Shown: piece after piece, positions 246-38,623 of the stretch
Layout: each line of letters starts with the position of its first letter
Position numbering within the stretch: the first letter of the stretch is position 1
NCBI GenBank assembly: GCA_051294375.1
Contig: JBJCIZ010000639.1
Coordinates: forward strand, 1-41,315
Direction of reading: 5' to 3'
From: Paraspadella gotoi
Taxonomy: Eukaryota > Animalia > Chaetognatha
DNA: 41,315 nt
The notes under the pieces: generated by a model
Told to the model about the DNA's origin: nothing
Database searches by the model: none
Seen by the model: the letters and a program-made list of their open reading frames with translations, nothing else
Position numbers and translations under genes: made by a program

Positions 246-868
246 GATTCACGACCACAAGAAAGCACCAATGTAAGACTGTATTTGGTTCCGCTTACAA
301 ACGTCGCATTTAGCAAAAAACAAGTTTTTCCAATATAGTTCAGTTGTTACTTACAATATTAATTTAATTTGTACCACAATACAAATCGGGCGGAATCGAG
401 GGATTGGTTAAAATCATTTTGAGCTATTTCTAATGATAAAAAAGTACAATTTTTGCAACATTTAGGAGAAAAAATCATGTCCATTTTTGTCCATTTTCAC
501 TTTCGTTTTCTGATTTGAATGCCAAGGAAAGTTAAAAATTATTTTTTACTTTGGAAATCCGTTCTTTCTTATCTTTTTTACCTCTGGGTTAATTCATTTC
601 CTTAAATCATGTATAATTTGCCTATGAATTAATTTTAAAGTTGACAAGTCAAAAAGTTTCATTTTAAGTTTTTATCAAAATTAGTTAAACGAAAATTGTT
701 CAATTTTGTTTAAATTAACAGAATATATAGCCTATTGAATAAGCTTTTAATACCTACAAAATTATCTAAAAAATCTGTTTGGTTTAGCCACAAATAATTT
801 TTAAAGACGTTTACGTGGGCTGAAGATGACTGTCCGTAACTTCTATAACCCCCTCTAGCAGCCATGGA

Positions 869-948
869 ACGGGTCCCTGGGCTTGGAACCAGGCTTGAGG
901 GTTTTCCATGCCCCCAAGGCGGCTTACGGCCGTCCTCACGCTTCCCGC
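869..948 (-). ncRNA. Twister self-cleaving ribozyme, P5-type permutation, palindromic P1
   Basis: Minus strand: GCGGG(P5) AA GCGU(P2') GA GGA CGGCCG U^AA GCC(P2) GCC UUGGGGG..CCCUCAA(P3) G CCUGG UUCCAAGC CCAGG(P4) GA CCCGU(P5). Pseudoknots T1 (UCC/GGA) and T2 (GC/GC) are both satisfied. Predicted cleavage between 926 and 925. Confidence 0.88.
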
Positions 949-966
949 AGGGTAGGTACCGGGTTA

Positions 967-1027
967 GGATTGAACCCGGTACCTAGTGGTCATGAGCTGA
1001 TGGCTTTACTCAATGATCCACCGGGTC
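967..1027 (-). promoter_or_regulatory. tRNA-derived head (internal Pol III promoter) upstream of the twister
   Basis: A-box-like TGGATCATTGAG, anticodon-loop-like CTCATGA, B box GGTTCAATCC (967-976). The T-arm region is extended into a perfect 13-bp hairpin (953-965/973-985). Confidence 0.65.
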
Positions 1028-1309
1028 ACAACTGAAAGTGTCATGATTCTAGGCGGGGTGAACCTAGGCAATGCCCGACTACATTTATTAATTTGTGACT
1101 TTTTGTGACTTTCATTTATTTTTAATAAAAATAATATTTTTAACTCTTTTATTAGTTTTAAAAGATAATATACATACTGACATTGATTAATAAAAAAATC
1201 TAGATTGAATCTATATGAAGTTTTATAAAAGTGTGCGATCATAGTAAGTTAAAAATTTAGATATGGCTTCTCATCTTGAAATAGCTTTGAAATTTTTATA
1301 TTACATTTG

Positions 1310-3665: not shown

Positions 3666-3914
3666 TATTGTGTATAGACTTTCGATTTTGTTGTGTTTCG
3701 AATTTAGAGAGGAAAACAATTTATTTGTTTTGTTTCAACGAATTTTTAGGATATTTTTTCAGACATGTTTCAACTTTACAATTAGAGTCTTCATCAGCAT
3801 TGCAGCATCATTGCAGCATTGCTGATGAAGACTCTAATTGTAGAGTCGAAACATGTCCAAAAAAATGTCCTAAAAATTCGTTGAAACAAAACAAATAAAT
3901 TGTTTTCTTCTCTA
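3666..3914 (-). mobile_element. Penelope-like element remnant: inverted pseudo-LTRs with tail
   Basis: Inverted arms ~3703-3799/3820-3916, each with a hammerhead motif; ~37-nt asymmetric extension on the left; 14-bp flanking direct repeat AAAGTTAAATTATA (3652-3665, 3915-3928). Confidence 0.8.
3819..3860 (+). ncRNA. Minimal type I hammerhead ribozyme (Penelope-type)
   Basis: UUG CUGAUGA A GACUCU aauugu AGAGUC GAAA CAUG U C^CAA: intact core, 6-bp stem II, palindromic ACAUGU in place of stem III, 3-bp stem I. A more degenerate mirror copy is on - at ~3760-3799. Confidence 0.85.
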
Positions 3915-5254
3915 AAAGTTAAATTATAAAATTAACCGATTTTAACGGTTAACCGTTAAAAATATTAGTTTTAACAGTTAAGCGAAATTTCTCAAAAATT
4001 AACGGTTATCGGAACCCTAGTTATCATTGAAGGTAGGCTCGATCCGATTCTTTTAAGATTTTTATTTTCCATTCCTGCAAGGGTCGCGCGTTCAAGACGT
4101 CGGCCGTCGGATGAACTGGCTTTAACAAGGAGCAAGGTTTTCTAAATCTCAAAGATATATAAATGTCGAATAAATCACGAATAGGTTTATTCTTGTAGAA
4201 GTAAACAAATGGCGAAATATGTGTCGTACAATCAATTCGTGACGAAAATCCTTTTTTTCCATGATAAAGCCTGTTCATCCGACGGCCGATCTTTTCCTGT
4301 GAAACGATTATTATCGAATCAAGTTAGCGTCTGCCCGTTAAAAAAAGTTTCTGTGCCTCAAGGTGTCGCGCGTTCAAGACGTCGCCCATTGAAAGAGTAC
4401 GATGAGGGTTTTTGATATTATTGATACTAATAAAATAATAATTATATATAATATAATTATGTATAATATAATTAACAATTCAGAAAAAAATATCAGAGAG
4501 ATAGAATATAATAACTATTTATTTTTATTTTTCAAAATATTTTCAATTAAAAGTGTAGAGGGATACAAAGATAAGTGGAGGGAGAAAGAGTGTGTGAAAA
4601 AAAAGAGTAACAGGTAGAGAGAGAGCGATCGTATTTGAAAGTATAAAAAAAGAATAAGTAGGTTGAGAACAAGTGAGAAGGAAAGAAAAGAAGAGATGGA
4701 AAAGGAGAGAGAGAATCGAAGAGAGAAGAAGAAAAGAGATAAAAAGGGGAAAAAAATAGAAGGGGAAAAAAGGCAAAATAAAGGAAGAGAGAGGATGAGA
4801 GAAGGAAGAAAGAGTGACAGAGAGGGAGAAAGAGAAGGAAAAAGAAAAAGGGAGAGGGAGAAAGAAAAAGATTAAGTGTCATCTTTATCCTGAAGAGTTC
4901 TGTGAATCTGATTGACGCGTAAATTCCTACGAGCAATTTTATCTTTAAAAGTTGTGCTTACCCTGAAAAATCACATGTACATTTTTCTTAAATTAAGCAA
5001 ATAAAGAGATTTGATTGAAGAAATCATGTCTGACCGTATTTTGAAGGCAAAGAAATTCACCTTGTCTGCTCGATGTTATAAGGAAAAGATTACTATAGCC
5101 AACCGTTTTTTTAACTGAAGAATGTTCTATATTTATCATTGGTAGACTGGCAAGCTTCCTATGGGACGGGTTGGAATATCTTTACAAAACCTTGGGAATA
5201 TTACCTTGGTACCAAAATAAGAGATTTGAGATAGAACGATTTTTTGTTTACAAA

Positions 5255-8200
5255 GCCAAAAGGTTCGTAATAAAAATCGGGTTACTCCAATATGCAAATG
5301 AGATTAACGTTTCACAGTAATATTTTGATTTAATAAAAACTTATTAATCTTATATAAAAATTTAAATAAATATAATAAAATCAAATTAAAAAGCTAGTAT
5401 ATATAGTTTGAACAGCAGATAGGATAAAAAAATATTATTAAGGACTAAAAAAACATGAAAATACTATTGCAATAAAGGTTTCTTGTAACTTAATCTTGAA
5501 AGATAGAAAGACAGTGAAGCAATGACAAAAAGCTATTGAGACAGAGAGAGATACAGTTTAATCAGTTTTTTGTTTTTCTCACAACCAATTTGGTACTGTT
5601 TACTTGAATCATATCAAAATACTTTAATAGCAAGGATTCTTCAGATGCTTTCCTTTCCAGGGCTCTCTTCAATTAACTTCAGAGTAAGAGTAATAGTAAA
5701 AAGAATTCATGATTGTTTTTGTGATTCTCTCCGTCTTTGTCATAGTTATTATCTTTGTTTGTTTGCTTTAAAAAAGACAACAAAGTTGAAAACAAAAAGA
5801 ACATGCGGCCTTTGGCTTACCTGCAAAAATGATAAAAATGTTTATTTCTTCTAGAACAAAAAAAATACTTTTATGTAAGGTGATGGCAAACAAGAAGATG
5901 AGGAAACTTTATTCGTTTTGTTAGTGATAAATTTTGCTTTCATACATCACAAGGAAAAGAGTGAGCATTATCATTACATTTGAGATAATAAGTTATGACA
6001 GTAAAAAATTAATATGATTTAAGAATTTTAATTTTGGAGCTACTTGGAGGTTAATAAAAAATCAAGGGTAAATCATTCATTTGTCATGGGTGAGGTTCAG
6101 TTTTATCAAATTCCAACTTTTATTGCTTTACACTATTATAAAGTCTATATCTAAAAATTATACTTTTGGCTCAATCTGCATTTTTCTCTCTCCCTCTCTC
6201 TCTCTTAGTCTCTCTTTATATTTCTTATTTGTTTCCAGAAAAAACTTTTATTCTTGTTAAAACTTTTACCAATGATAATAACTTATAAAATAAGTCAAAA
6301 TATTTGGCAAAAATTATACTTTTTGTACTTGCCAATATAATTATGTCAAAATGATATTATGGGAATAAATAAACGAGTTTGTGAAAGAGTCTTGATTGAA
6401 TGCTTGCAAGGAACTGCTCTGTTATTATCTTGTACACTACGGCGGGAAAAAAATCACTTTTCACATCGAAAAAAACCGTATTGGATGGCTGAATTTTACA
6501 AAGATATAGATACATAAAATAAAGCTTATTGGACGATAAAGCGATTAGTACTAGTCCCAATAAAATCGAGCAAAGTGTTCGAAAGTTATAGGACGACAAA
6601 GTTGATTGGTACAAAAATCGAAAAAGAAGAAATTAGTTTTCGTCAAAATGAGTCAATAACTTTTCCCTATTAAAAGTGTTTATAATATTGAAATTGGTAC
6701 AGTACCGGAAACCAAGAATGTCGTAAGTCTGTACATGGGAAAACTTTTCCATTTATAGGATAAATAGCTTTAGGATTTTATAGGAAGTTGCCTGGATGGC
6801 TGGCTATTGCCCATTTAAGCAATTTTTCAAAAAAATAATCTTAAACCACTTAAAAATTGGGTCAAAATTTTTTTTAAAAACTTGCATAGCTCTAATATAT
6901 TTTAAATTTTTTTCTTAAAATTTTGCCAACTTATACTCAAGAGGGTTTGTAAACTTCTGTAGAAATATTGTTACTATCAAAAATTTTTTCCCCATATTTA
7001 TCAGTGCTATATATTTTAGATGGGTCATTTTTTCAATGATGCATAACTTCCTTATTTGTGAATATTATGGTTTTAAATTTTAGTAATAGGTGGGCCTTGG
7101 GTAGTCCTACAATACATATAAATTTCAATCATTTTGAAAAACTTTTTGACACAGGTCAATTTTTTTTTACAAAATTCAATTGTCAATCCTGCTAAAAATA
7201 TTATTGCAAATAATGTTATTCTTTGCCTATAAATCAGTTAAAACATATTTAAAATAAGCCTAAAGCAAAAAATTTTTCTCAACATTTTTAAAAACTCATT
7301 TGCATATTGTTGCATTTTATATTTTTTTTAATTTTTTCACATAAAACTAATCAATTTTTTAAAATTTTTGGTACACAGATAATATAATAATCAAACCTTT
7401 AAAAATATATCATCAAACCTAATTTTTAAGAAATTTCAAATATTTTTAATGTATTTTATATATATCTAAAAATTATGATTTTAATAAGCATTCTGCTAAC
7501 TTTTTCAAAGTGGGCATCATTGAAAAGAGGGCAACTCAAGGATTCCAAATATATAATTTTTTTACCAAATTTAATGTCCCAAAGCTGAGATAATTCTTTC
7601 CAAAGTGCTCAAAAATTGAAAAAAATACTACTTTTTAATCGTTAATAGAAAATGCGACTATGATAGTTTTGTTTCAATACTTGGTAACTAGGTCAAGAAT
7701 TGTTCATATTTTGTGGTAATGTCATGTCCAGGGAAGAAAATAAATATTATAGTAGATTCCTCAATCGATTTTTAAATTTGGCAGAACATTTTACTCTTTT
7801 TTACCAAGTTTTTAGAGTATGCTAAATGTTTCTCTGATTACGCAAAATAGAATTTGAGAAATAAAAAATTAATAGTACCAATAGTTGGTGTTATGTCTCA
7901 AATAGATGGAAAAAAAACCTTGTTTAAAAATTTGATCTGGAATAGGGGTAATTAGGCGTACCAATGGCATCGTCCATGCCAATCGTTCTTTCAAATAATT
8001 TTTTTTATTTAATACATTTGAAAGGCGAAAAAAGGAAATTCAAAATGCTGGTGGCATGAAAGTTATAAAAAATCCGGGCATAGTGACTTGAAAATCATGA
8101 CCTTTTATGTCTTGCGTAATGAGGGCATTAAATAAACTAAAAAAATGTAATCATTAAGTCAGTCAATCAACCCTTTCAAATAGGTTGTTCTGCGAAATTT

Positions 8201-8867
8201 TTTAGTGAAGAAAATAAATTTTTGAGTGAAGAGAACAAATTTCGCAGAACAGTCTATTTGAAAGGGTTGATTGACTGACTTAATGATTGAATTTTTGGTC
8301 TATTTACTGCCCCCATTACACAAGACATAAAAGGTCATGATTATCAAGTCACTATGGCCAGATTTTCTATAACTTTCATACCACCAGCATTTCGAATTTC
8401 CTTTTTTTTCCCCAAGACTCTCTCACAGTCTTGTTTATTCACTCCCAGAGTACCTGGCTTCCCTATCAATATGAAATGGTATAATGTTTCAAAGAATGTT
8501 TCAATTGTATTAAAATAATGTAATTTTCTTGCACCAATTGATTGCTTATTGAAAAAGATATATATTTTTAAATATTTTTTAAAATTAAAAAAGAAATAGT
8601 TGTTTTACCAATTTGATAATAAAAATATGAAAAAAAAAAAAATTGTAAAACTTCAATAGCCATGTTAATATTATTAGATTAATTAGCTTTTTTAAATATT
8701 TTTTAATATACAGAACTATCAAAACAAATTAAAGCATATTTATTAATTGTTTTTTTAAAAAAAAAATTATTATTAAAATGTTTATGCTTTTTTTTTGCCT
8801 TATATTCAACGCATTAATCTCATTTGCATATTCGAGTCACTCGATTTTCATTACTAACCTTTTGAGC
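5255..8867. mobile_element. Putative non-autonomous TIR element bounded by ~55-bp inverted repeats
   Basis: CAAAAGGTTCGTAATAAAAATCGGGTTACTCCAATATGCAAATGAGATTAA (from 5257) matches the reverse complement of ~8814-8867. No clear TSD. Confidence 0.5.
8028..8407. repeat. Fold-back palindrome with ~170-bp arms (MITE-like)
   Basis: 8028-8200 is a close reverse complement of 8237-8407, with a 36-bp spacer. Confidence 0.85.
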
Positions 8868-9900: not shown

Positions 9901-10905
9901 AATTGTGATATAAATTATTTTTTTTCGTTGTTTGGGACGATTAGAGACAGTTTGAGTTTAATTTGACAAGCGATGTTTATTTTTATGCCAAACAGACATG
10001 TTTCGGCTTCATTTCAAGCTTCATCAGCGTTATTGTGAATTTGGAAAATATTTTGTGTAAAGGAAGAGAGAAAGAGAGAGGGCAAAGTTCCAACACAGAG
10101 TTTAGAAAGGACAGTGGTCAATTGGTGAGGAACGGCTGAAGTTGAGAAAACACAGAGTAAGTTGTGAAAGAAGTGAAATGGTGAAAAAGTGAGAGAGAAG
10201 AGAGAGAGAGAGAGAGAAAACAGTGCAAAATCTTTACATTGTGTAATGTATAACAATAATAAAAAGTTTTTAAACTGATGAATATTAGTGAAATTTAACA
10301 ATTAATCTTCTTAATAATTAATCAGAATGAAAACAGGAAATATAAAATGGTAGATTTGAGAGATGAGTTAATAAGTAATAAAGTGAAATTAAAGAATAAA
10401 GATAAAGCTCAAAATGAGCTGGCCCCCCTTGGCATGGGCAAATGATAGGCATGATTATTAACTCATTTCTCAAATCTATCATTTCAAATTTCAAATTTCC
10501 TGTTTCATTCTCACTAATTATTAAGTAGATTAATTGTTAAATTTCACTATATATTCATCAGTTTAAAACTTTTTATTATTGTTATACATTACACAATGTA
10601 AAGATTTTGCACTGTTTTCTCTCTCTCTCTCTCTCCCTCTCACTTTTTCACCATTTCACTTCTTTTCACAACTTACTCTGTCTTTTCTCACTTCAGCCTG
10701 TCCTCACCAATTGACCACTGTCCTTTCTAACCCTTGGGTTGGAAACTTTGCCCTCTCTTCTCTCTGTTTTTCTCTCTTTCTCTCTTCCTTTACACAAAAT
10801 ATTTTTCAAATTCACAATAACGCTATGAAGGCTTGAAATGAAGCCGAAACATGTCTGTTTTGCATAAAAATAAAATCGTTGTCGAAATTAACTCAAACTG
10901 TCTCT
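9901..10905 (-). mobile_element. Penelope-like element remnant: ~460-bp inverted pseudo-LTRs with hammerheads and tail
   Basis: 9943-~10380 is inverted against ~10455-10905; 42-nt left-only extension; 11-bp flanking direct repeat GATATTTTGAT (9890-9900, 10906-10916). Confidence 0.85.
9991..10031 (-). ncRNA. Minimal type I hammerhead ribozyme (slightly degenerate)
   Basis: AACG CUGAUGA AGCUU gaaaug AAGCC GAAA CAUG UC UGUU; one G is missing from stem II relative to the mirror copy at 10819-10859 (+), which instead lacks core G5 (CUAUGA). Confidence 0.75.
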
Positions 10906-12998
10906 GATATTTTGATCATAAGTGTAAGAAAAATATGAAAAAACTATTTATAATCATCATGATCATCATTTTTCGATAATTTTATTACTTTTTCCGAATT
11001 TTGACCAAGAAACATAAATATTTTTGAAAGTTGTAGTTAAATTTTTTATTTAACTTTTTATGCTCTATCAGAATCCATCAAAAAAAGTTAAGATTGATTA
11101 AAAAAATTGTTATCATTATATATTAATATTGTAATTTTAAAAGCAACAATAAAAGCATTAAAATCGAACTTTTTTTTAAAAATTCTTTTTTTACCTAAAG
11201 TAGACTTCATGACTAAAGTTTTGAACCCCCGCCCCTATTGAATTTAATTTCATAGTAGATTTCTAATAGAAAAAGCTATATTTTAAGCTGAAAATTCACT
11301 TTTTATATATTAAATATAGTTTTTTTTAATTTTTAACCCACTTAATGAAAGAATATTTAAAAATGATTTATATTTTTCTTCTATCAACTTTTTGACGAGG
11401 AATTCAAATCTGCAATCAAAATTAAGAAAAGCCTATTTTGAAGATTTTAGATTTTATAAGGATAGTACTATATATAAATAATAAATATAGCCTACTTCGA
11501 AAATTAAAAAACATAAACTTAATTTTTTTTTTAAATAAATGTTCACTGAAGGTATGTTGTTCATAATTAACTTTTAGAATTTTTGTATGTAACTTTCACT
11601 ACGCCTTACTGTGAAGCCGACCTAATTTTGTCGCGGCTCCAGCTCCGGCTCCAGCTCCAGGCCAAATTTTTTCCGGCTCCAGCTCCGGCTCCGGCTCCAA
11701 TATTCATAATATATTCTTTAAATTATATAATTTAAATTTTGATTATATTTAATATTTATTTTATATTAATCCCACCGCTGCCACCACAATTTAGTAACAA
11801 GGCAGGGATTTCTAAGCGAAATCAAAGTGGATTTTATTTCTTCAGAAAATAGACAGTGAACAAGACGGTGTCAATTTCCAGGCAGAGTGAATCAATACAG
11901 AATTTGGTTCCCTTTTATATGGCCCAAACGGATCAGAGGTAAGGGTAAAATTTCTCGACCATTTGTTCATTGGCCGATGCCATTTGTCTTTCGACCAATG
12001 AGAAAGTTCCATTATATTTCCATTTTATTACATAAATGTTCATTAATATTATCAACGAAATGGACCTATAAACGGACTATAATGTTGTTCATTCCTCACT
12101 TTTAGAATTTTAATTAAAGTTAAATTTAGAAATTTAACTACGCCTTAATATTCAGGGATAAATTTTACTTCATAAAAAATTGAAAGTATTTATAATAAAT
12201 TTAATAGATTAAAAATAAAGAATTATTATTATTTACTTAATCTTGTATGTAATAAATATATGATATTTACTTAATCTTGTATGTAATAAATATATGATAT
12301 TCTATAAATCATGTATATAATATTATATTTTTTAAAATATTTTTTATTTTAATAATTATAATCTTATTTTATTTTTATGAAGCTGGAGCTGGGCATTTTT
12401 ATTTCGGCTCCGGCTCCAGCTCCGGTCAAAAATTTATTTCGGCTCCGGCTCCAGCTCCAGCTCCGGCCAGATAAAAATTCTGGCTCCGGCTCCGGCAAAA
12501 AAAGCTCGGCTCCGGCGGCCCCAGCTCCGGCTCCGGCTCCACATCCCTGGAGCAAACAATATCGGAAATGCCCTCAGTAAGCAGCTGATCATGGCTATTA
12601 AAAGTGTGATATCATAAGGAGTTGAAAATGTAGATATGGCTTCTAATCATCATTTTCTTTGAAATTGTTATGCTTCATATCAATATTCGTATTTGTTTAT
12701 GTTTAATTTACAAAACAAAAACTTTTTAATTATATGTCGCTCTCTCTCCCTTTTAATTCTACATCGCTCTCTCTCTCTCTCTTTTTCTCCGTCACTGCTT
12801 CTTCTGATTTTTTTTTTCTTGATAAAGACGTTCTAAATTAGAATCTAATGGTAAAAAAAACAAAAACACTTGAACCTTCGGCGATTCATTAAGTATTTAT
12901 TTACTCTCTCTCTGGTAACGAGGTCTGTTCCATAGATTTTATCTTTTCATCAATTACTATTGCTCTATGGTGGACTAAAATCCACCAACCGTTCATCA

Positions 12999-13071
12999 GC
13001 AGCCATTGATGCCGGAGGCAAGTCATTCGCCTCCCAACCCAAAGGTCCGGGGTTCTAGCCCGGTGGTCGCC
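12999..13071 (+). promoter_or_regulatory. tRNA-derived (Gly-CCC-like) Pol III head in 5' LTR
   Basis: Acceptor-like stem GC(A/G)GCCA/TGGTCGC, A-box-like TG(A/G)TGCC(A/G)GAGG, loop CTCCCAA, T-arm CCGGG-GTTCTAG-CCCGG. The anticodon stem is broken, so this is not a functional tRNA. Confidence 0.75.
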
Positions 13072-13072
13072 T

Positions 13073-13148
13073 AGCAGTTAAGAGGGACGGGGCGCTTAAC
13101 CCACCTGTAACACGGAGTTACAGCCTGATCCGAAGCTCAGGGACTGCT
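13073..13148 (+). ncRNA. Twister ribozyme (P5-type) in 5' LTR of copy A
   Basis: AGCAGUU(P5) AA GAGG GA CGG GGCGCU U^AA CCC ACC UGUAAC..GUUACA G CCUGA UCCGAAGC UCAGG GACUGCU. T1 CCG/CGG is intact; L2 reads ACC instead of GCC, weakening T2. Predicted cut 13097/13098. Confidence 0.8.
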
Positions 13149-13199
13149 TACATTGAACCATTCTGTCACAACACATAATAATAATTACTGTCTCTTCAT

Positions 13200-13212
13200 T
13201 GGTGAGCTCGAC
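13200..13212 (+). promoter_or_regulatory. Primer-binding site, tRNA-Trp-like
   Basis: TGGTGAGCTCGAC resembles the complement of the metazoan tRNA-Trp 3' end (TGGTGACCCCGAC, recalled); copy B reads TGGTGAGCCCGAAC. Confidence 0.6.
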
Positions 13213-13372
13213 TTCCGAACACAACAGCAACAACAACACTTTCAGGCAACATGCCTCAACCTGGCGATGCACTTTCCGCCCACAACACATCAGGCGACAT
13301 GCCTCAACTTGGTGACGAACTTTCCACCAACAACAACAATTCACTGAAGAGATGCGACTGACTTCTCCCTAC

Positions 13373-13384
13373 GGGAGGGGGGGA
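13373..13384 (+). promoter_or_regulatory. Polypurine tract
   Basis: GGGAGGGGGGGA directly before the TG of the 3' LTR; conserved in copy B (36489-36500, -). Confidence 0.85.
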
Positions 13385-13419
13385 TGTATGGTGGACTAAA
13401 ATCCACCAACTGTTCATCA

Positions 13420-13492
13420 GCGGCCATTGGTGCCAGAGGCAAGTCATTCGCCTCCCAACCCAAAGGTCTGGGGTTCTAGCCCAGTGGTCGTC
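13420..13492 (+). promoter_or_regulatory. tRNA-derived Pol III head in 3' LTR
   Basis: GCGGCCA...TGGTCGT acceptor-like stem, TGGTGCCAGAGG A-box-like, T-arm CTGGG-GTTCTAG-CCCAG. Confidence 0.75.
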
Positions 13493-13493
13493 T

Positions 13494-13569
13494 GGCAGTT
13501 AAGAGGGACGGGGCGCTTAACCCGCCTGTAACATGGTGTTACAGCCTGATCCAAAGCTCAGGGACTGCT
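13494..13569 (+). ncRNA. Twister ribozyme (P5-type) in 3' LTR of copy A
   Basis: Same fold; L2 GCC intact, 7-bp P3 UGUAACA/UGUUACA, L4 UCCAAAGC (one T1 mismatch). Predicted cut 13518/13519. Confidence 0.8.
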
Positions 13570-13863
13570 TACATTGAACGGTTCTGTCATTAACACAACA
13601 ATAATTACTGTCTCTTCAAAAGTAAATTTTATTTTTTCATGTCAATGAGCAAAGCGTTCGAACGATTCTCCAATTAAAAATTCTTCTGGAAACTTAAATT
13701 CTTAAAGTTGTTAAGCATTTCTTTATTGTATAGATGGCGCATGCGCTAGCATCGTTGTTTATGAAAAAAGAATGATGTTGATTCAAATCCTGGCGACCCC
13801 TTTTTTTTACATTTAGTTGCAATGACCCAAAAGTACCAATAGAGCATTGACTTACCAAAAGGA

Positions 13864-19692: not shown

Positions 19693-20885
19693 TCAATCAT
19701 CAGTCAGAGAGAGATAGAGAGAAAAGAAAACTTTAAAAATAATCAAAATAATGTGTCTTTGGTTTTTAATTTGAACTCTTTTTCACTCCTACGATTCATA
19801 TAATTATATAGCGCTTTATCACATACTTCTACCCACCACAAAATTCATTTCGTTTATCTATCCAATTTTTAATAAACATAATAATTATGAGTAAATTTAA
19901 GTAAAAATACTTCAAGTAAATAATGACTTTTGTTTTTTTTCCATTTTAACTCATTTCACTCGCACGATTCCATCGAACTTTATTTTATCCAGCTCAATCA
20001 CACACTTCCCTACCCTCATACAAAATCTCAAGTCAATTGACCTATCCACTCATGAGCAATTGGCGTTCAAATAGTGAAATATATTTTTTTGTTTTTTCCA
20101 TTTAAACCACTTTCCACTCGCACGATTCCCTCGAAACTTCGTATCCATATCAATCACACAGTTTCCTACCCACACACAAAATTTCATACCAATCCATCCA
20201 TCCAATCACGAGTAATTGGAGTTTTTTGCTAAGGTGGGACGGACGGACGGACGGACGGACGGACGGGCGGACGGACGGCCGGACGGACGGACGGACGGAC
20301 GGACAGAAAGACGGACATCGTTATTTTGCATAATTTATCATAATTCGATGTTCTGACATGATATAAGTGTGTGCCCGACAATATTGAGGGGGCGGACCGA
20401 CGGACCGACGGACCGACAAAGTGAGTTATAGAGTCGGGATCTGCTGAAAAGCAGATCCGACTAAAAATCTTATATAACCGTGCTGTATCACTGAAACTTT
20501 GAAAAAAATATTGAAAATACTTTAGTTATCTAGAACATAATATAATATAAAATAATATAAAATTTAAATACCTTAATGTAAGATAACCTAATATAATATA
20601 TATGTGAGTTAGGTAAAACCTGACAGATAAATAGATAGAAACTTCAAAACTTGGGTTTACTTACAAGTGAGTTGTCGAACAGATGTGTGTGTGCGTGCCC
20701 ACTCGGCTGCGTTTATTAACTCGACTCTCTCGATTTTTAGGTAAATTCGCTAAAATTTAACCCGACACTCAAATATTTGTGTTGCTGATTTTAATTACGC
20801 TTAAAATACCTTTATAATAGCTTTAGTTTACCATTTAAATACAATTATTTTTATAAACTTCTTTGTTCGCACAAAAAACAAAAAA

Positions 20886-22274
20886 ATGAACACTTCTGAA
20901 AGAGGAGGTTCAGTCATGAAACTCGGAGGATTTGAATTCCTTTTAAGAAAGGACAGGTTAGGAAAAAATGGTGAAAAAACATGGCGATGTCGCGAGTCCA
21001 GAAAATTTAAATGCCCAGCCTCCATTAGGACTTTGAATGATCAGGTCCTAGAAGGGCAAGGAAATGCAAACCACTCACATCCTGGAGATCCTGTGCGGAG
21101 TGAAGTGCGGCACCTACAGTCCCGAATTCGGAATGATTCTATCCGAGGCCAAGAATCTACAAGTACTATTTTGTCAACTCATTTGACTGATGTTAATCGA
21201 GACGTTCTTCAACGTTTGCCCAAGAAAGACAGTCTCGCGGCAAACGTCAGAGCAAAGAGAAGAAATACAAACCCTACAAACCCAAATCCTCAAAACAGGT
21301 CTTTTGAAATTCCTGAAAGATATCAAAACATGATTCTTCATGACACAGGCTCACAGGATCCAAATAGGATTCTTGTTTTGGGAGATTTGGATCTTGTGAG
21401 ATCACTTGAAAGTGAGGACTTGTGGCTTGGCGATGGTACATTTAGTGTAGTGCCACATATGTTTTTTCAACTTTATACAATTCATGCTAAAATTGGGACC
21501 AAATATCCCCCATGCATTTACTTTCTTCTGCCAAATAAAACACAGGATACGTACATCAGGATGCTAGAAGCCCTGGTCATAATCCTCCCAAATTCAAATC
21601 CTCAAACAATTCTTTTGGATTTTGAAAATGCGGCTCAAAATGCCTTCAGACTGACTTTTCCCAATGCCGCCATTAAAGGCTGTCTCTTCCACTTAGGCCA
21701 ATCTGTTTTGAGAAAAGTGGCAGAACTCGGTCTAAAAACAGAATATGAAGGAGACGCTGACTTTAACATCGCCATTAAATCCCTCATCGCTTTATCTTTT
21801 GTTCCCGAAATTGAGGTTTTAGAACGATTTATAGAATTGGCTGATACCATTCCTCCTTTAGACAGAGTAGAGGAACTTCTTTCATTCTTTGAAATCACCT
21901 ACATTCAGGGAAGGGATAGAGGCCAGGGAAGAGGAAGGGCTCCTGCACGCTATCCTCCAGAGATCTGGAATCACTTTACGGCACCAAGAGGAAATGTTCC
22001 TAGAACCACTAATGCTGTTGAGGGATATCATAATGGCCTCAATTCATTGTTTCTGTCTCAGCATCCAAGTATCTGGAAACTGATGGATGGCCTTAAGAAG
22101 GACATTTCCATGCACTTAAAGACACAAGCTGATGTGCAGGTAATGAACGACCCACCTGCACGACAAAAATATGTGATTTTGTCCATGAGATTAGCAGCTA
22201 GGATTGATAGCTATGCCAATGCTCATGACAAATTAGCTTATTTAAGATCTGTTGCACATATTTTCAGCTCTTAA
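20886..22274 (+). CDS. Mutator-superfamily (Phantom-type) transposase with N-terminal FLYWCH zinc finger
   Basis: 462-aa intact ORF. FLYWCH W33-x-C35-x7-C43-x19-H63-x-H65; MULE motifs D183 (GDGTF), FQLYTIH, PCIYFLLPNKT, D245 (LDFE), C266-x-x-H269, WN, and E379 (RTTNAVEGYH). Confidence 0.95.
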   Translation: MNTSERGGSVMKLGGFEFLLRKDRLGKNGEKTWRCRESRKFKCPASIRTLNDQVLEGQGNANHSHPGDPVRSEVRHLQSRIRNDSIRGQESTSTILSTHLTDVNRDVLQRLPKKDSLAANVRAKRRNTNPTNPNPQNRSFEIPERYQNMILHDTGSQDPNRILVLGDLDLVRSLESEDLWLGDGTFSVVPHMFFQLYTIHAKIGTKYPPCIYFLLPNKTQDTYIRMLEALVIILPNSNPQTILLDFENAAQNAFRLTFPNAAIKGCLFHLGQSVLRKVAELGLKTEYEGDADFNIAIKSLIALSFVPEIEVLERFIELADTIPPLDRVEELLSFFEITYIQGRDRGQGRGRAPARYPPEIWNHFTAPRGNVPRTTNAVEGYHNGLNSLFLSQHPSIWKLMDGLKKDISMHLKTQADVQVMNDPPARQKYVILSMRLAARIDSYANAHDKLAYLRSVAHIFSS

Positions 22275-36010: not shown

Positions 36011-36302
36011 GTCATAAACATAGGTACAAGTATTCGATATAGCTCTCTCTCTCTCTCTTTCTAACTGCTTATCCCTATCCCAACGCTAATCCTAAAACCA
36101 GATTTCTAATCCTTATCCCTTGCCCTTATCCCTATCCTTAACCCTAATGCCCTAACCCTATCCATAAATTATTCCCTCAATCTAAACTTATCCCTAACCG
36201 AAACCTAAGGCAAAAACTTAATGGGAAACGCCGGCCGTAATTTTTATGTGTGAAGAGACAGTAATTATTGATAAGTGTTAATGAAAGAACCGTTCAAATA
36301 TA

Positions 36303-36377
36303 AGCAGTCCCTGAGCTTCGGATCAGGCTGTAACACCATGTTACAGGCGGTTAAGCGCCCCCGTTCTCTTAACTGCT
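36303..36377 (-). ncRNA. Twister ribozyme copy (3' LTR of copy B), degenerate at P2/L1
   Basis: P3, P4, P5, L2 GCC and L4 UCCGAAGC are intact; GAGAACGG replaces GAGGGACGG. Confidence 0.65.
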
Positions 36378-36728
36378 AGGCGGCCACCGGGCTAGAACCC
36401 GGACCTTTGGGTTGGGAGGCGAATGACTTGCCTCTGGCACCAATGGCCGCTTATGAACGTGTTATGGTGGATTTTAGTCCACCATACATCCCCCCCTCCC
36501 GCAGGGAGAGTCTCTTGCGTCTCTTCAGTGAATTGTTATTGTTGTGGAAAGTGCGTCACCAAGTTGAGGCATGTCGCCTGATGTGTTGTTGGCGGAAAGT
36601 GCATCGCCAGGTTGAGGCCTGTCGCCTGAAAGGTGTTGTTCTTGTTGATCTGTTGTGTTCGGAAGTTCGGGCTCACCAATAAGAGACAGTAATATTGACA
36701 ATGTGTTAATGAAAGAACCGTCAATATA

Positions 36729-36807
36729 AGCAGGTCCCTGAGCTTTTGATCAGGGCTGTAACACCATGTTACAGGAGGGTTAAGCGCCCCGTCCCTCTTA
36801 AACTGCT
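36729..36807 (-). ncRNA. Twister ribozyme copy (5' LTR of copy B), degenerate at L2/L4
   Basis: GAGGGACGG GGCGCU UAA CCC is intact; L2 (UCC) and L4 (UCAAAAGC) are mutated. Confidence 0.6.
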
Positions 36808-38623
36808 AGGCGGCCACGGGCTAGAACCCGGCAAGCCTTTGGGTTGGAGGCGATATGACTTGCCTCTGGGCACTAATGGCCGCTGATGATAAGACGTTGG
36901 GTGGATTTTAGTCCACCATATTGGTAAGCTTTCTCAGCAATAACAACGCGCAACCTTTCGAGTTCTGCCCCTCTCTCTTTTTCTCACTCACTCACTCACT
37001 TGCTAACTCCACTTACTAGTCACTTACTTTTTTCACACACTCTATCTTTTTCACTCAAACTGATGTCTTTGTCTTTGTTTTTTTCCGCACTGTCCTGTAA
37101 ATATTGACCCGACGCTTTACTGTGTATAAATATTTTTACCCTACAAAAAATAATTTTCTCAATCTTAAACTTGTTTGTGTTAACACTGCACATTTTGTTA
37201 ATAACTTGAACTAATCAAAAAATTTTAAAATCTTTTGTTTTTCGTCCTTTCCATTTTCAAACTTTAAGTGGGTATAAAATTACCAGCATACAAATTTTAA
37301 TTAATAATTTTTAGGTGGCTAGTTTTTATAAATGATTGAAAATGGTGTTTTTTTAGGTATTTTTGACAGTTATTGGGTCATATTACTCATAGTTAATTTT
37401 TAAAAGTCTATATATATACATATATTTGGAATCAGCTTGATCCCCTCTTTGCCTTGGGACAGAAAAATTTAATATAGACTGCATATCTCAAAAAAATGGC
37501 AAAATGTTTTAATCTTGTAATCCAAGTTTTTCTAATGTGGTAATATTTTTTTTTAATTTGGGGTTGTCTTAGGTTAAAGCGCACCTTTTACAATATTTTA
37601 AAATCATCACGTAATTTGATTTATTATTTTTAACTATTTTAGTGAAAAAAGTTTTAAACTGATTTTTATGTGATAACTCCTATGTTTTTTTAAATACCTC
37701 CCTGAAATTACATCAATATGTGCGGGCATGTTAGTCGATTATATGGACCAAAAATAAAACAAATTTAAAAAGAAATAGCTGTTTTAGAAGCAAAACAAAA
37801 TAAAAAATAAATCAAGACCTTAGCGCAAAATTTTTGAATTGATTATTTTCCATCAGGTGGGCAATAGAGCAAATTTTCCTTCATCTTTTTACGAAATCTT
37901 AGCTCATTATAACGATAAGTTTATGAGTTATTCATTCCCTGAACTTCGTGGAGTCTAGAGAAAAGGTACTGTATTTATTCGTTTCTTCTTTTTCTTTCTG
38001 TTTATAAATTAATTTTCTTTTCTCAAATTTGATTTTTTTTTAGTATAAAAATTTGTCGTCAATCCAGATTTTTCTTATGCGATTGCGACGATCCTTATGC
38101 TTTTAAGATTTTTTATAGTATCAAAAACAGCTTAAACAGAGGAGTTTCTGACTGCATTGTTTTTTAAGAGATATGTTATTCACACATTACAAAATAAACC
38201 AATCTTCTTTTTAGTTTGAATTCTATCAGCATTTATGTATTTAATTGTATCTTGAGAGCTTTAAATGATTTTGCAATAATTTTTCTACATAACATTCAGG
38301 GAGTAATGACCTAGAATGAGAAACAATAAAAAATGAAAAAAATCAAAGATGAAATTTATTTTTTAACTGCATAGTTTTTTCTACGAGACTGTACATCACG
38401 TCATAAGTAATAAAATTATCAAAATATGATGATGATGATGATTATTAGTTTTTCGTATTTTTCACCCAATTATGATCAAAATTTTACTTTGTGTAGAAAA
38501 CTTTTTGCAAGCTAACTAAATCTGATTTTAAAAATAAAAAAATCTAAAAAAAATTTTTAGTCTTTCCTATTTATAAATAAATAATAAAAAATTAATATAT
38601 GGGATATAAATTAATATTAAAAA

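Follow-up and report, generated by a model that had tools for sequence, protein, structure and literature searches.

We find that a 270-bp repeat near the start of the 41,315-nucleotide stretch of Paraspadella gotoi DNA studied here (hereafter the window), at 814-1083 on the minus strand, is best explained as the solo LTR of a gene-less miniature LTR retrotransposon of Helenus type that carries a tRNA-derived promoter sequence and a predicted twister ribozyme, and we hold with moderate confidence that a two-LTR copy of this element would be cut, circularised, and copied by a helper. We call this repeat family 2; a second family in the same window, family 1, occurs as elements with two LTRs. 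Read from the sequences, both families are real, lie well beyond chance, and form a new combination of known parts with cleavage as a prediction only: the Helenus-type scaffold is known, and the twister is the new part.

When the window was compared with public contigs, 6829 contigs of run X1 matched 700-1200, and 814-1083 appeared on the minus strand as a high-copy repeat with two sharp ends, a GC-rich island in AT-rich, repetitive surroundings. Loose contig ends fall at 815 and at 1083/1084; at the latter boundary, which is the start of the repeat, 88+34 contigs of X1 and 53+23 contigs of X5 break off into unrelated flanks. Copies of family 2 therefore have a sharp TG start, 56 nt upstream of their tRNA-like head, and a far end near 815, where the contig comparison revealed neither a poly-A nor a repeat tail. 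The letters TTTA stand on both sides of the window copy (810-813 and 1084-1087), and joints from empty sites keep three letters between 810 and 1088, which makes the filled site 274 nt longer than the empty one. This difference equals 270 bp plus a 4-bp target-site duplication (TSD); a 269-bp insert with a 5-bp duplication would fit the length equally. The original prediction of a solo LTR rather than a SINE, with a TGTAG start and a TTTA duplication, was borne out by the sharp start ahead of the head, the lack of a tail, and the shorter empty site. A tRNA-derived SINE was rejected as a candidate, given a start at 1083 against a head at 1027 and no tail. The window copy ends in CG rather than CA, and another group of family 2 copies is about 17 nt longer and ends in CCACA. 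As a separate observation, the flanks (approximately 700-813 and 1084-1200) belong to a multi-copy AT-rich repeat, the target of the solo LTR insertion. The window holds only the single solo unit of family 2, and no internal region with a PBS was recovered for this family; one majority sequence at loose ends of X5 (23 contigs, agreement 0.46) is a stretch of purines ahead of the TG start, and no PBS was seen.

The two-LTR form is found in family 1. Element a (12966-13618, plus strand) has LTRs at 12966-13198 and 13387-13618 with TA...CA ends, a PBS-like site at 13200-13217, and a PPT at 13373-13384, and element b (36251-36920, minus strand) has LTRs running from 36920 to about 36680 and from 36486 to 36251, also with a PBS-like site and a PPT. 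These elements, 653 and 670 bp long, are non-coding, with paired LTRs, and in both the first LTR is followed by a TGG-type PBS and the second is preceded by a purine tract. The PBS starts TGGTGAG, which we take to be Trp-like. Contigs end sharply at 13387 and 13618, the limits of a family 1 LTR. The twister motif is present in 4/4 family 1 LTRs of the window, each with at least one lesion and with more lesions in element b than in element a; in element a, twister geometry predicts cut sites at U13097/A and U13518/A on the plus strand, 421 nt apart. T1 is intact in most family 1 copies (13553, contig comparison), and in run X1 CpG-type changes strike T1 and the linker of this family. Neither of the two elements is flanked by a TSD (flanks GCTC/AAAG and CCAA/CACA), and the LTR pairs within elements are 92% alike, with LTRs of different copies 89-94% alike; the absent duplications and the unexceptional likeness of the pairs could be due to age, to rearrangement, or to an error of assembly. 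Run X10 (organism B) yielded only 2 contigs, and run X11 (organism C) none for family 1; both were left out. No helper element was found.

Several further observations concern family 1 and its comparison across runs. Copies have their start at TATGG, which lies two bases inward from the TG after the PPT, in 151 contigs of X1 against 36. Positions 13347-13353 of the internal region are predicted to pair with 13190-13196 at the LTR end (probability >0.8), closing off the PBS domain, and such a pairing recurs in element b. Runs X5 and X9 differ from X1 in three respects: over the head of family 2 the depth summed across contigs is 2-3 times higher, a quantity that cannot show RNA level or RNA ends; family 1 variants of CpG type are far less frequent; and coverage of the internal region of family 1, set against that of the LTR, is lower, which would not favour a dominant circle of LTR plus internal region, depth again being no measure of RNA level. 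Differences in contig depth between runs were excluded from the evidence.

The LTRs of the two families are 59-61% identical over aligned bases, where shuffles average 56%, and align with a score of 95 against 43 for shuffles (sd 9). Since the score lies well above the shuffles, we regard the families as divergent relatives and not as independent inventions. Against this divergence, paired elements of the predicted structure have changed in concert: across five LTRs, 6/17 counted pairs changed on both sides, including 2/3 in T1, compared with 0-1 in slid controls. As claimed at the outset, T1 is UCC (887-885) with GGA (935-933) in family 2 and CCG with CGG in family 1, and P4 is CCUGG/CCAGG in family 2 and CCUGA/UCAGG in family 1. 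The claim of unrelated yet paired P3 and P5 also holds: P3 has 8 bp in each family (918-894 in family 2), P5 has 5 bp in family 2 (948-869) and 6 bp in family 1, and the only thing common to the two sets of sequences is the basal C-G of P3. The asserted invariance of GA, UAA, GCC, and U-NNN-AAGC stands when the family 2 copy is set against the family 1 majority, but not for the individual family 1 LTRs of the window, all four of which are lesioned. Similarly, the broader claim of a selected, diversified class supported by covariation is upheld by the pairs that change on both sides and weakened by common ancestry: there are only two related lineages, so each covarying change counts as one event.

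Variation among copies of family 2 points in the same direction. Among the eight variants listed in the 80-nt domain, none (0/8) falls in the conserved bases, the pseudoknot bases, or the P1 6-mer; two lie in stems with pairing kept, and six in loops or the bulge. Fisher's test on the placement of the variants listed gives p=0.0002, a provisional value that may be biased. The variant at 923, present in 123 contigs of X1, changes G-U to A-U and is not a CpG change, and that at 947 changes G-C to G-U.

The predicted twister variant, of the P5-permuted type, occupies 869-948 on the minus strand, where it is indicated by the best match to the Rfam Twister-P5 family, a check of its pairs, a descriptor search, and covariation. 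Read along that strand, the order is the first strand of P5, the second of P2, GA, T1, a 6-nt segment, U/AA, the first strand of P2, GC, P3, P4 with U-UCC-AAGC, and the second strand of P5. The pairs are P5 (5 bp, 948-944 with 873-869), P2 (941, 939, and 938 with 921-923, C940 bulged), P3 (8 bp, 918-911 with 901-894), P4 (893-889 with 880-876, closing loop L4 at 888-881), T1 (935-933 with 887-885), and T2 (920-919 with 882-881); GA lies at 937-936. Cleavage is predicted at the U926/A925 boundary from the geometry of twisters, and the 6-nt P1 region at 927-932 is a perfect palindrome and a candidate for an intermolecular P1. Each feature that the original prediction named for a P5-type twister was found at its expected minus-strand place, and the twister set (GA, U/AA, GC, U-NNN-AAGC, T1, T2, P4) is complete in family 2. 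The further claim of an intact core is right insofar as 26/26 listed pairs of P2, P3, P4, P5, T1, and T2 are intact in this copy, but P2 is a bulged helix of 3 bp instead of the typical 4 bp, and the 6-nt P1 region permits no normal hairpin, where twisters typically have an intramolecular P1 of 2 bp or more.

A loose descriptor built from published consensus features of twisters, and relaxed to a 3-nt P2 strand after the family 2 copy had been viewed, has a single match in the window, at U926/A925. When dinucleotides were shuffled it matched 0/100,000 versions of the element and 1/200 versions of the whole window. We rejected a chance likeness to twisters. In Rfam, Twister-P5 (RF02684) scores 17.1 bits on family 2 (E 0.28), short of the gathering score of 37.6, a low value that we attribute to the nearly absent P1, the short P2, and the inserted P3. 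Neither the Rfam scan of the whole window nor that of one family 1 LTR called a twister, and no hammerhead was matched in the window, in the family 2 element, or in the family 1 LTR scanned. From its sequence, then, the motif is a predicted twister variant that is not filed under RF02684. Natural twisters are described as tolerating defects in P1 and P2 and not in the catalytic G or A or the pseudoknots; P1 is reported to be dispensable, and P1 and P2 defects to be tolerated, in the natural type-P1 twisters tested (PMC11662667).

Searches for further families returned only one locus of note. With a covariance model trained on the five copies, the window yielded no third family, and none was found among the loci of the viral scans (1, 13, and 1) or of GTDB (4). 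The metagenome scan gave at least 120 loci, and among the matches listed 0/128 had both P4 4/4 and T1 3/3. Apart from the phage contig L139, the matches of all these scans were judged to be chance. L139 carries three canonical type-P5 twisters on the minus strand (292-345, 702-757, and 1207-1260), about 410-500 nt apart and each between short ORFs. These score 55-61 bits and have a P4/L4 almost identical to that of family 2; because L139 was picked with the P4/L4 pattern, its matches to the covariance model are partly circular.

Folding calculations place the nested twister fold 7.2-9.5 kcal/mol above the monomer minimum (pseudoknots not counted), compared with 4.4-6.3 kcal/mol in the same calculation for the three L139 twisters. 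In both families the predicted lowest-energy monomer fold contains a competing hairpin that masks the twister core. We still favour the twister, because the ribozymes of plant retrozymes are likewise blocked and because the base change at 923 disrupts the competing hairpin while improving P2 of the twister. Taken together, 869-948 very probably has a true twister fold, and we consider it likely that the predicted twister cleaves in some context.

Upstream of the twister lies a tRNA-derived head resembling a type-2 Pol III promoter (966-1027, minus strand), with box A at 1020-1009, an anticodon-like loop at 996-990, and box B at 976-966. Numbered as a tRNA from G1027, U8 is 1020 and positions 32-38 read CUCAUGA with CAU at 34-36, in agreement with the claim of a CAT-like head different from that of family 1. 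We take the head to be Met-like. The tRNA spacing is exact; the tRNA stems are not kept, ARAGORN calls no tRNA in the window, and a perfect 13-bp hairpin at 953-985 (minus strand) shares positions with box B, for which reasons a functional tRNA was rejected. Box B of family 2 has GGTTC, most copies have TGGCT in box A, and the second half of box A reads TGAG, not YGG; the window copy is off consensus at 1017 (box A) and 966 (box B), where most copies have the canonical letter. As far as its sequence goes, the head looks like the relic of a promoter rather than a tRNA. Just upstream of it, folding and contig variants point to a predicted 7-bp hairpin at 1026-1046 (minus strand), in which a variant at 1030 converts G-U to G-C and another at 1046, which is common, disrupts the outer pair; family 1 LTRs also start with a 7-bp hairpin, unrelated in sequence. 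The sense strands of both families contain no run of four or more U and therefore no standard Pol III terminator.

The window contains other repeats in addition to the two families. Between 18550 and 20430 and between 38660 and 39880 there are arrays of units of about 150-170 nt that end in GGAC microsatellites and represent a dispersed repeat, and 30-209 is a 16-bp tandem array rich in GGGCCCAC. Long MITE-like inverted repeats with arms 91-99% complementary lie at 3703-3916, 8028-8407, and 9976-10874, and account for spurious Rfam matches to plant microRNAs. An uninterrupted ORF for a FLYWCH-MULE transposase (20805-22274, plus strand; 462 aa from the likely start) has its nearest clusters, over 20886-22271, mostly in arthropods and rotifers, which by itself would point weakly to an invertebrate host.

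Under our preferred explanation, Pol III would initiate at the tRNA-like head of the 5' LTR and read through, with the predicted twister standing in for a terminator. One cut per LTR would then free a unit-length RNA without terminal redundancy, 421 nt long in family 1, which could be ligated into a circle as in plant retrozymes. A host tRNA would prime at the PBS, a Gypsy-type helper would reverse-transcribe the RNA, and integrase would insert the product; a solo LTR could arise from a short cDNA or when two LTRs recombine. A circle model and solo LTRs are known for plant retrozymes (PMC4918200), and animal Helenus elements have been assigned to Gypsy helpers (PMC10886601). For the circle route itself, argued by analogy, we consider the chances evenly balanced.

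A refinement that is compatible with this explanation concerns how the twister would be activated. Both families have a P1 segment of 6 nt that is self-complementary, although 4/6 positions differ between them, and the innermost (middle) pair is swapped from G-C to C-G. We read this as a hint of a dimeric twister formed by two LTRs. The same element might have a twister active only as a domain-swapped dimer, in which the 6-mers of the two LTRs form P1 and cleavage waits until both LTRs are present; we regard this as a tentative proposal that is probably not correct as it stands. The swapped innermost pair would be unusable in a monomer hairpin, self-complementary segments are only 8/64 and 24/384 of GC-matched 6-mers, and joining two nested monomers in the swapped arrangement lowers the computed energy by 12-16 kcal/mol. 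A precedent exists in Penelope hammerheads whose short stem III is palindromic and which are thought to cleave as dimers (PMC6765202). However, if the outer pair is needed anyway, we estimate a roughly 1-in-20 chance for the remaining pairs, and non-palindromic linkers gain nearly as much as the natural ones (-8.7/-9.0 vs. -11.9/-10.7). Further, unconstrained cofolding gave no twister-compatible structure with either natural or control linkers, folds of whole family 1 transcripts contain no swapped P1, and P1 is reported to be dispensable in twisters (PMC11662667). The most extended form of the proposal would be a diversified animal class of LTR retrozymes: Pol III-driven TRIMs with a stripped-down dimeric P5 twister, in which each LTR of a transcript would complete the active site of the other through the 6-nt palindromic P1, cleavage would be gated to full-length RNA, and a circle of about 400 nt would be the template for retrotransposition. 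We consider this whole doubtful; if true, a dimeric twister and a twister-based LTR element would both be on record for the first time.

It is also conceivable, and in our judgment unlikely, that the element is a Helenus TRIM whose twister only sets one RNA end or damps read-through, with replication through an ordinary linear, terminally redundant RNA, drawn from transcripts that escape cleavage, and no circle being formed. The blocked core in the predicted monomer fold would suit such a role, and neither Cassandra nor Helenus is considered to depend on a ribozyme (PMC10886601). Against it, catalytic and pseudoknot bases have been kept at approximately 60% identity, which implies selection for cleavage in the source copies, and an identical ribozyme is present in both LTRs. 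Less probable again is that the structured region is a multi-hairpin packaging or recognition signal in which the likeness to a twister is an accident or a relic. The low Rfam score fits this idea, as does an alternative hairpin, GG-A-CGGS...SCCG-CC, present in both families with high predicted probability, and 12 nt of family 1 are found again in two Ajax LTRs without the L4 loop. Such a signal would leave unexplained the mirrored changes in T1, one strand of which is in the L4 loop and the other after GA, as well as the exact set of GA, UAA, GC, and U-NNN-AAGC, the 0/100,000 shuffles matched by the descriptor, and the 923 variant, which disrupts the alternative hairpin. Finally, a SINE or a Penelope-dependent, non-LTR retrozyme, suggested by the tRNA-like head, by the occurrence of family 2 only as a single unit, and by schistosome SINE-like repeats described as joining a Pol III promoter to a hammerhead, is highly improbable in view of the sharp TG upstream of the head, the missing tail, the 4-bp TSD, and the homologous family 1, whose two LTRs enclose a PBS and a PPT, with sharp ends at 13387 and 13618.

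We return to a Helenus-type element with a predicted twister in its LTR as the preferred explanation. A tRNA-headed TRIM with one twister per LTR would join two designs that have been described separately, those of Helenus and of retrozymes; it would give the twister a defined job in the life cycle of an LTR element, and would explain how RNA ends are produced in a Pol III TRIM that has no terminator. Within the literature searched (closed journals and Repbase lay outside the search), we found neither a twister in an LTR element nor a dimeric twister, and the links between twisters and retrotransposons that came up, in sources available in part, concern non-LTR elements. Since the variant scores far below the Rfam threshold, similar elements could be widespread and have been missed.

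Among known ribozymes, the type-P5 twister (RF02684) shares with family 2 its strand order, GA, UAA, GC, U-NNN-AAGC, T1, T2, and P4, but in family 2 P2 is a bulged helix of 3 bp, not 4, P1 has 6 nt compared with 17-19 in L139, and P3 is added. Further twister permutations have been sought with none reported in the portion of the article available (PMC10085705), and circular RNAs that carry twisters are known both in metatranscriptomes and in peach, type-P1 forms being those named in the available text. The T-variant twisters of the Schistosoma element Perere-3 are likewise weak-P1 twisters serving a retrotransposon (Liu 2021, PMC8501958); they differ in being type-P1, in belonging to an autonomous non-LTR element, at whose 5' end they lie, and in drawing part of P1 from the target site (PMC8501958). 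Minimal hammerheads of Penelope-like elements also have a very short palindromic stem, tandem repeats, and a proposed completion by a second copy (PMC6765202), but they represent another ribozyme class, and dimer action in families 1 and 2 is hypothetical.

The scaffold is that of Helenus (TRIMp3), a TRIM with tRNA-like LTRs and, in animals, a 4-bp TSD (Kojima 2024, PMC10886601). Our families resemble it in being gene-less, with box A and box B in the LTR, a PBS and a PPT (family 1), and a solo LTR with a 4-bp TSD (family 2), and the TA...CA ends of family 1 occur among published wasp families (PMC10886601). In the published LTRs inspected by eye the tRNA-like part is placed near the 3' end, usually before a T-rich run, and most of these LTRs stop shortly after box B (PMC10886601), whereas family 2 has 150 nt after the head, containing the predicted twister and no T4 run. 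Helenus-1_MLe is an exception to this placement, and by eye no twister was seen in it. The word "twister" occurs 0 times in that article, which names no ribozyme, and a motif search of its supplement, where line wrapping at 70 letters can hide matches, found no counterpart of the P4/L4 described here. As a side observation, the LTRs of Ajax-1_NGe and Ajax-1_LiLo share 12 nt with 13515-13526, around a predicted cut, followed by a hairpin, which could be chance or a relic (PMC10886601).

Plant LTR retrozymes show the same organization, with a ribozyme in each LTR, a non-coding interior, a PBS and a PPT, a 4-bp TSD, and solo LTRs (PMC4918200, PMC7761336), and in them, too, the ribozyme is blocked in the predicted lowest-energy fold (PMC4918200). 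They differ in having type III hammerheads, a tRNA-Met PBS, and no tRNA-like head (PMC4918200, PMC7761336), and metazoan retrozymes are said, in the part of the account available, to lack LTRs, PBS, and PPT (PMC7761336). By its predicted parts, the element of families 1 and 2 would work like an LTR retrozyme and is not a member of that group as defined, having neither a hammerhead nor a tRNA-Met PBS.
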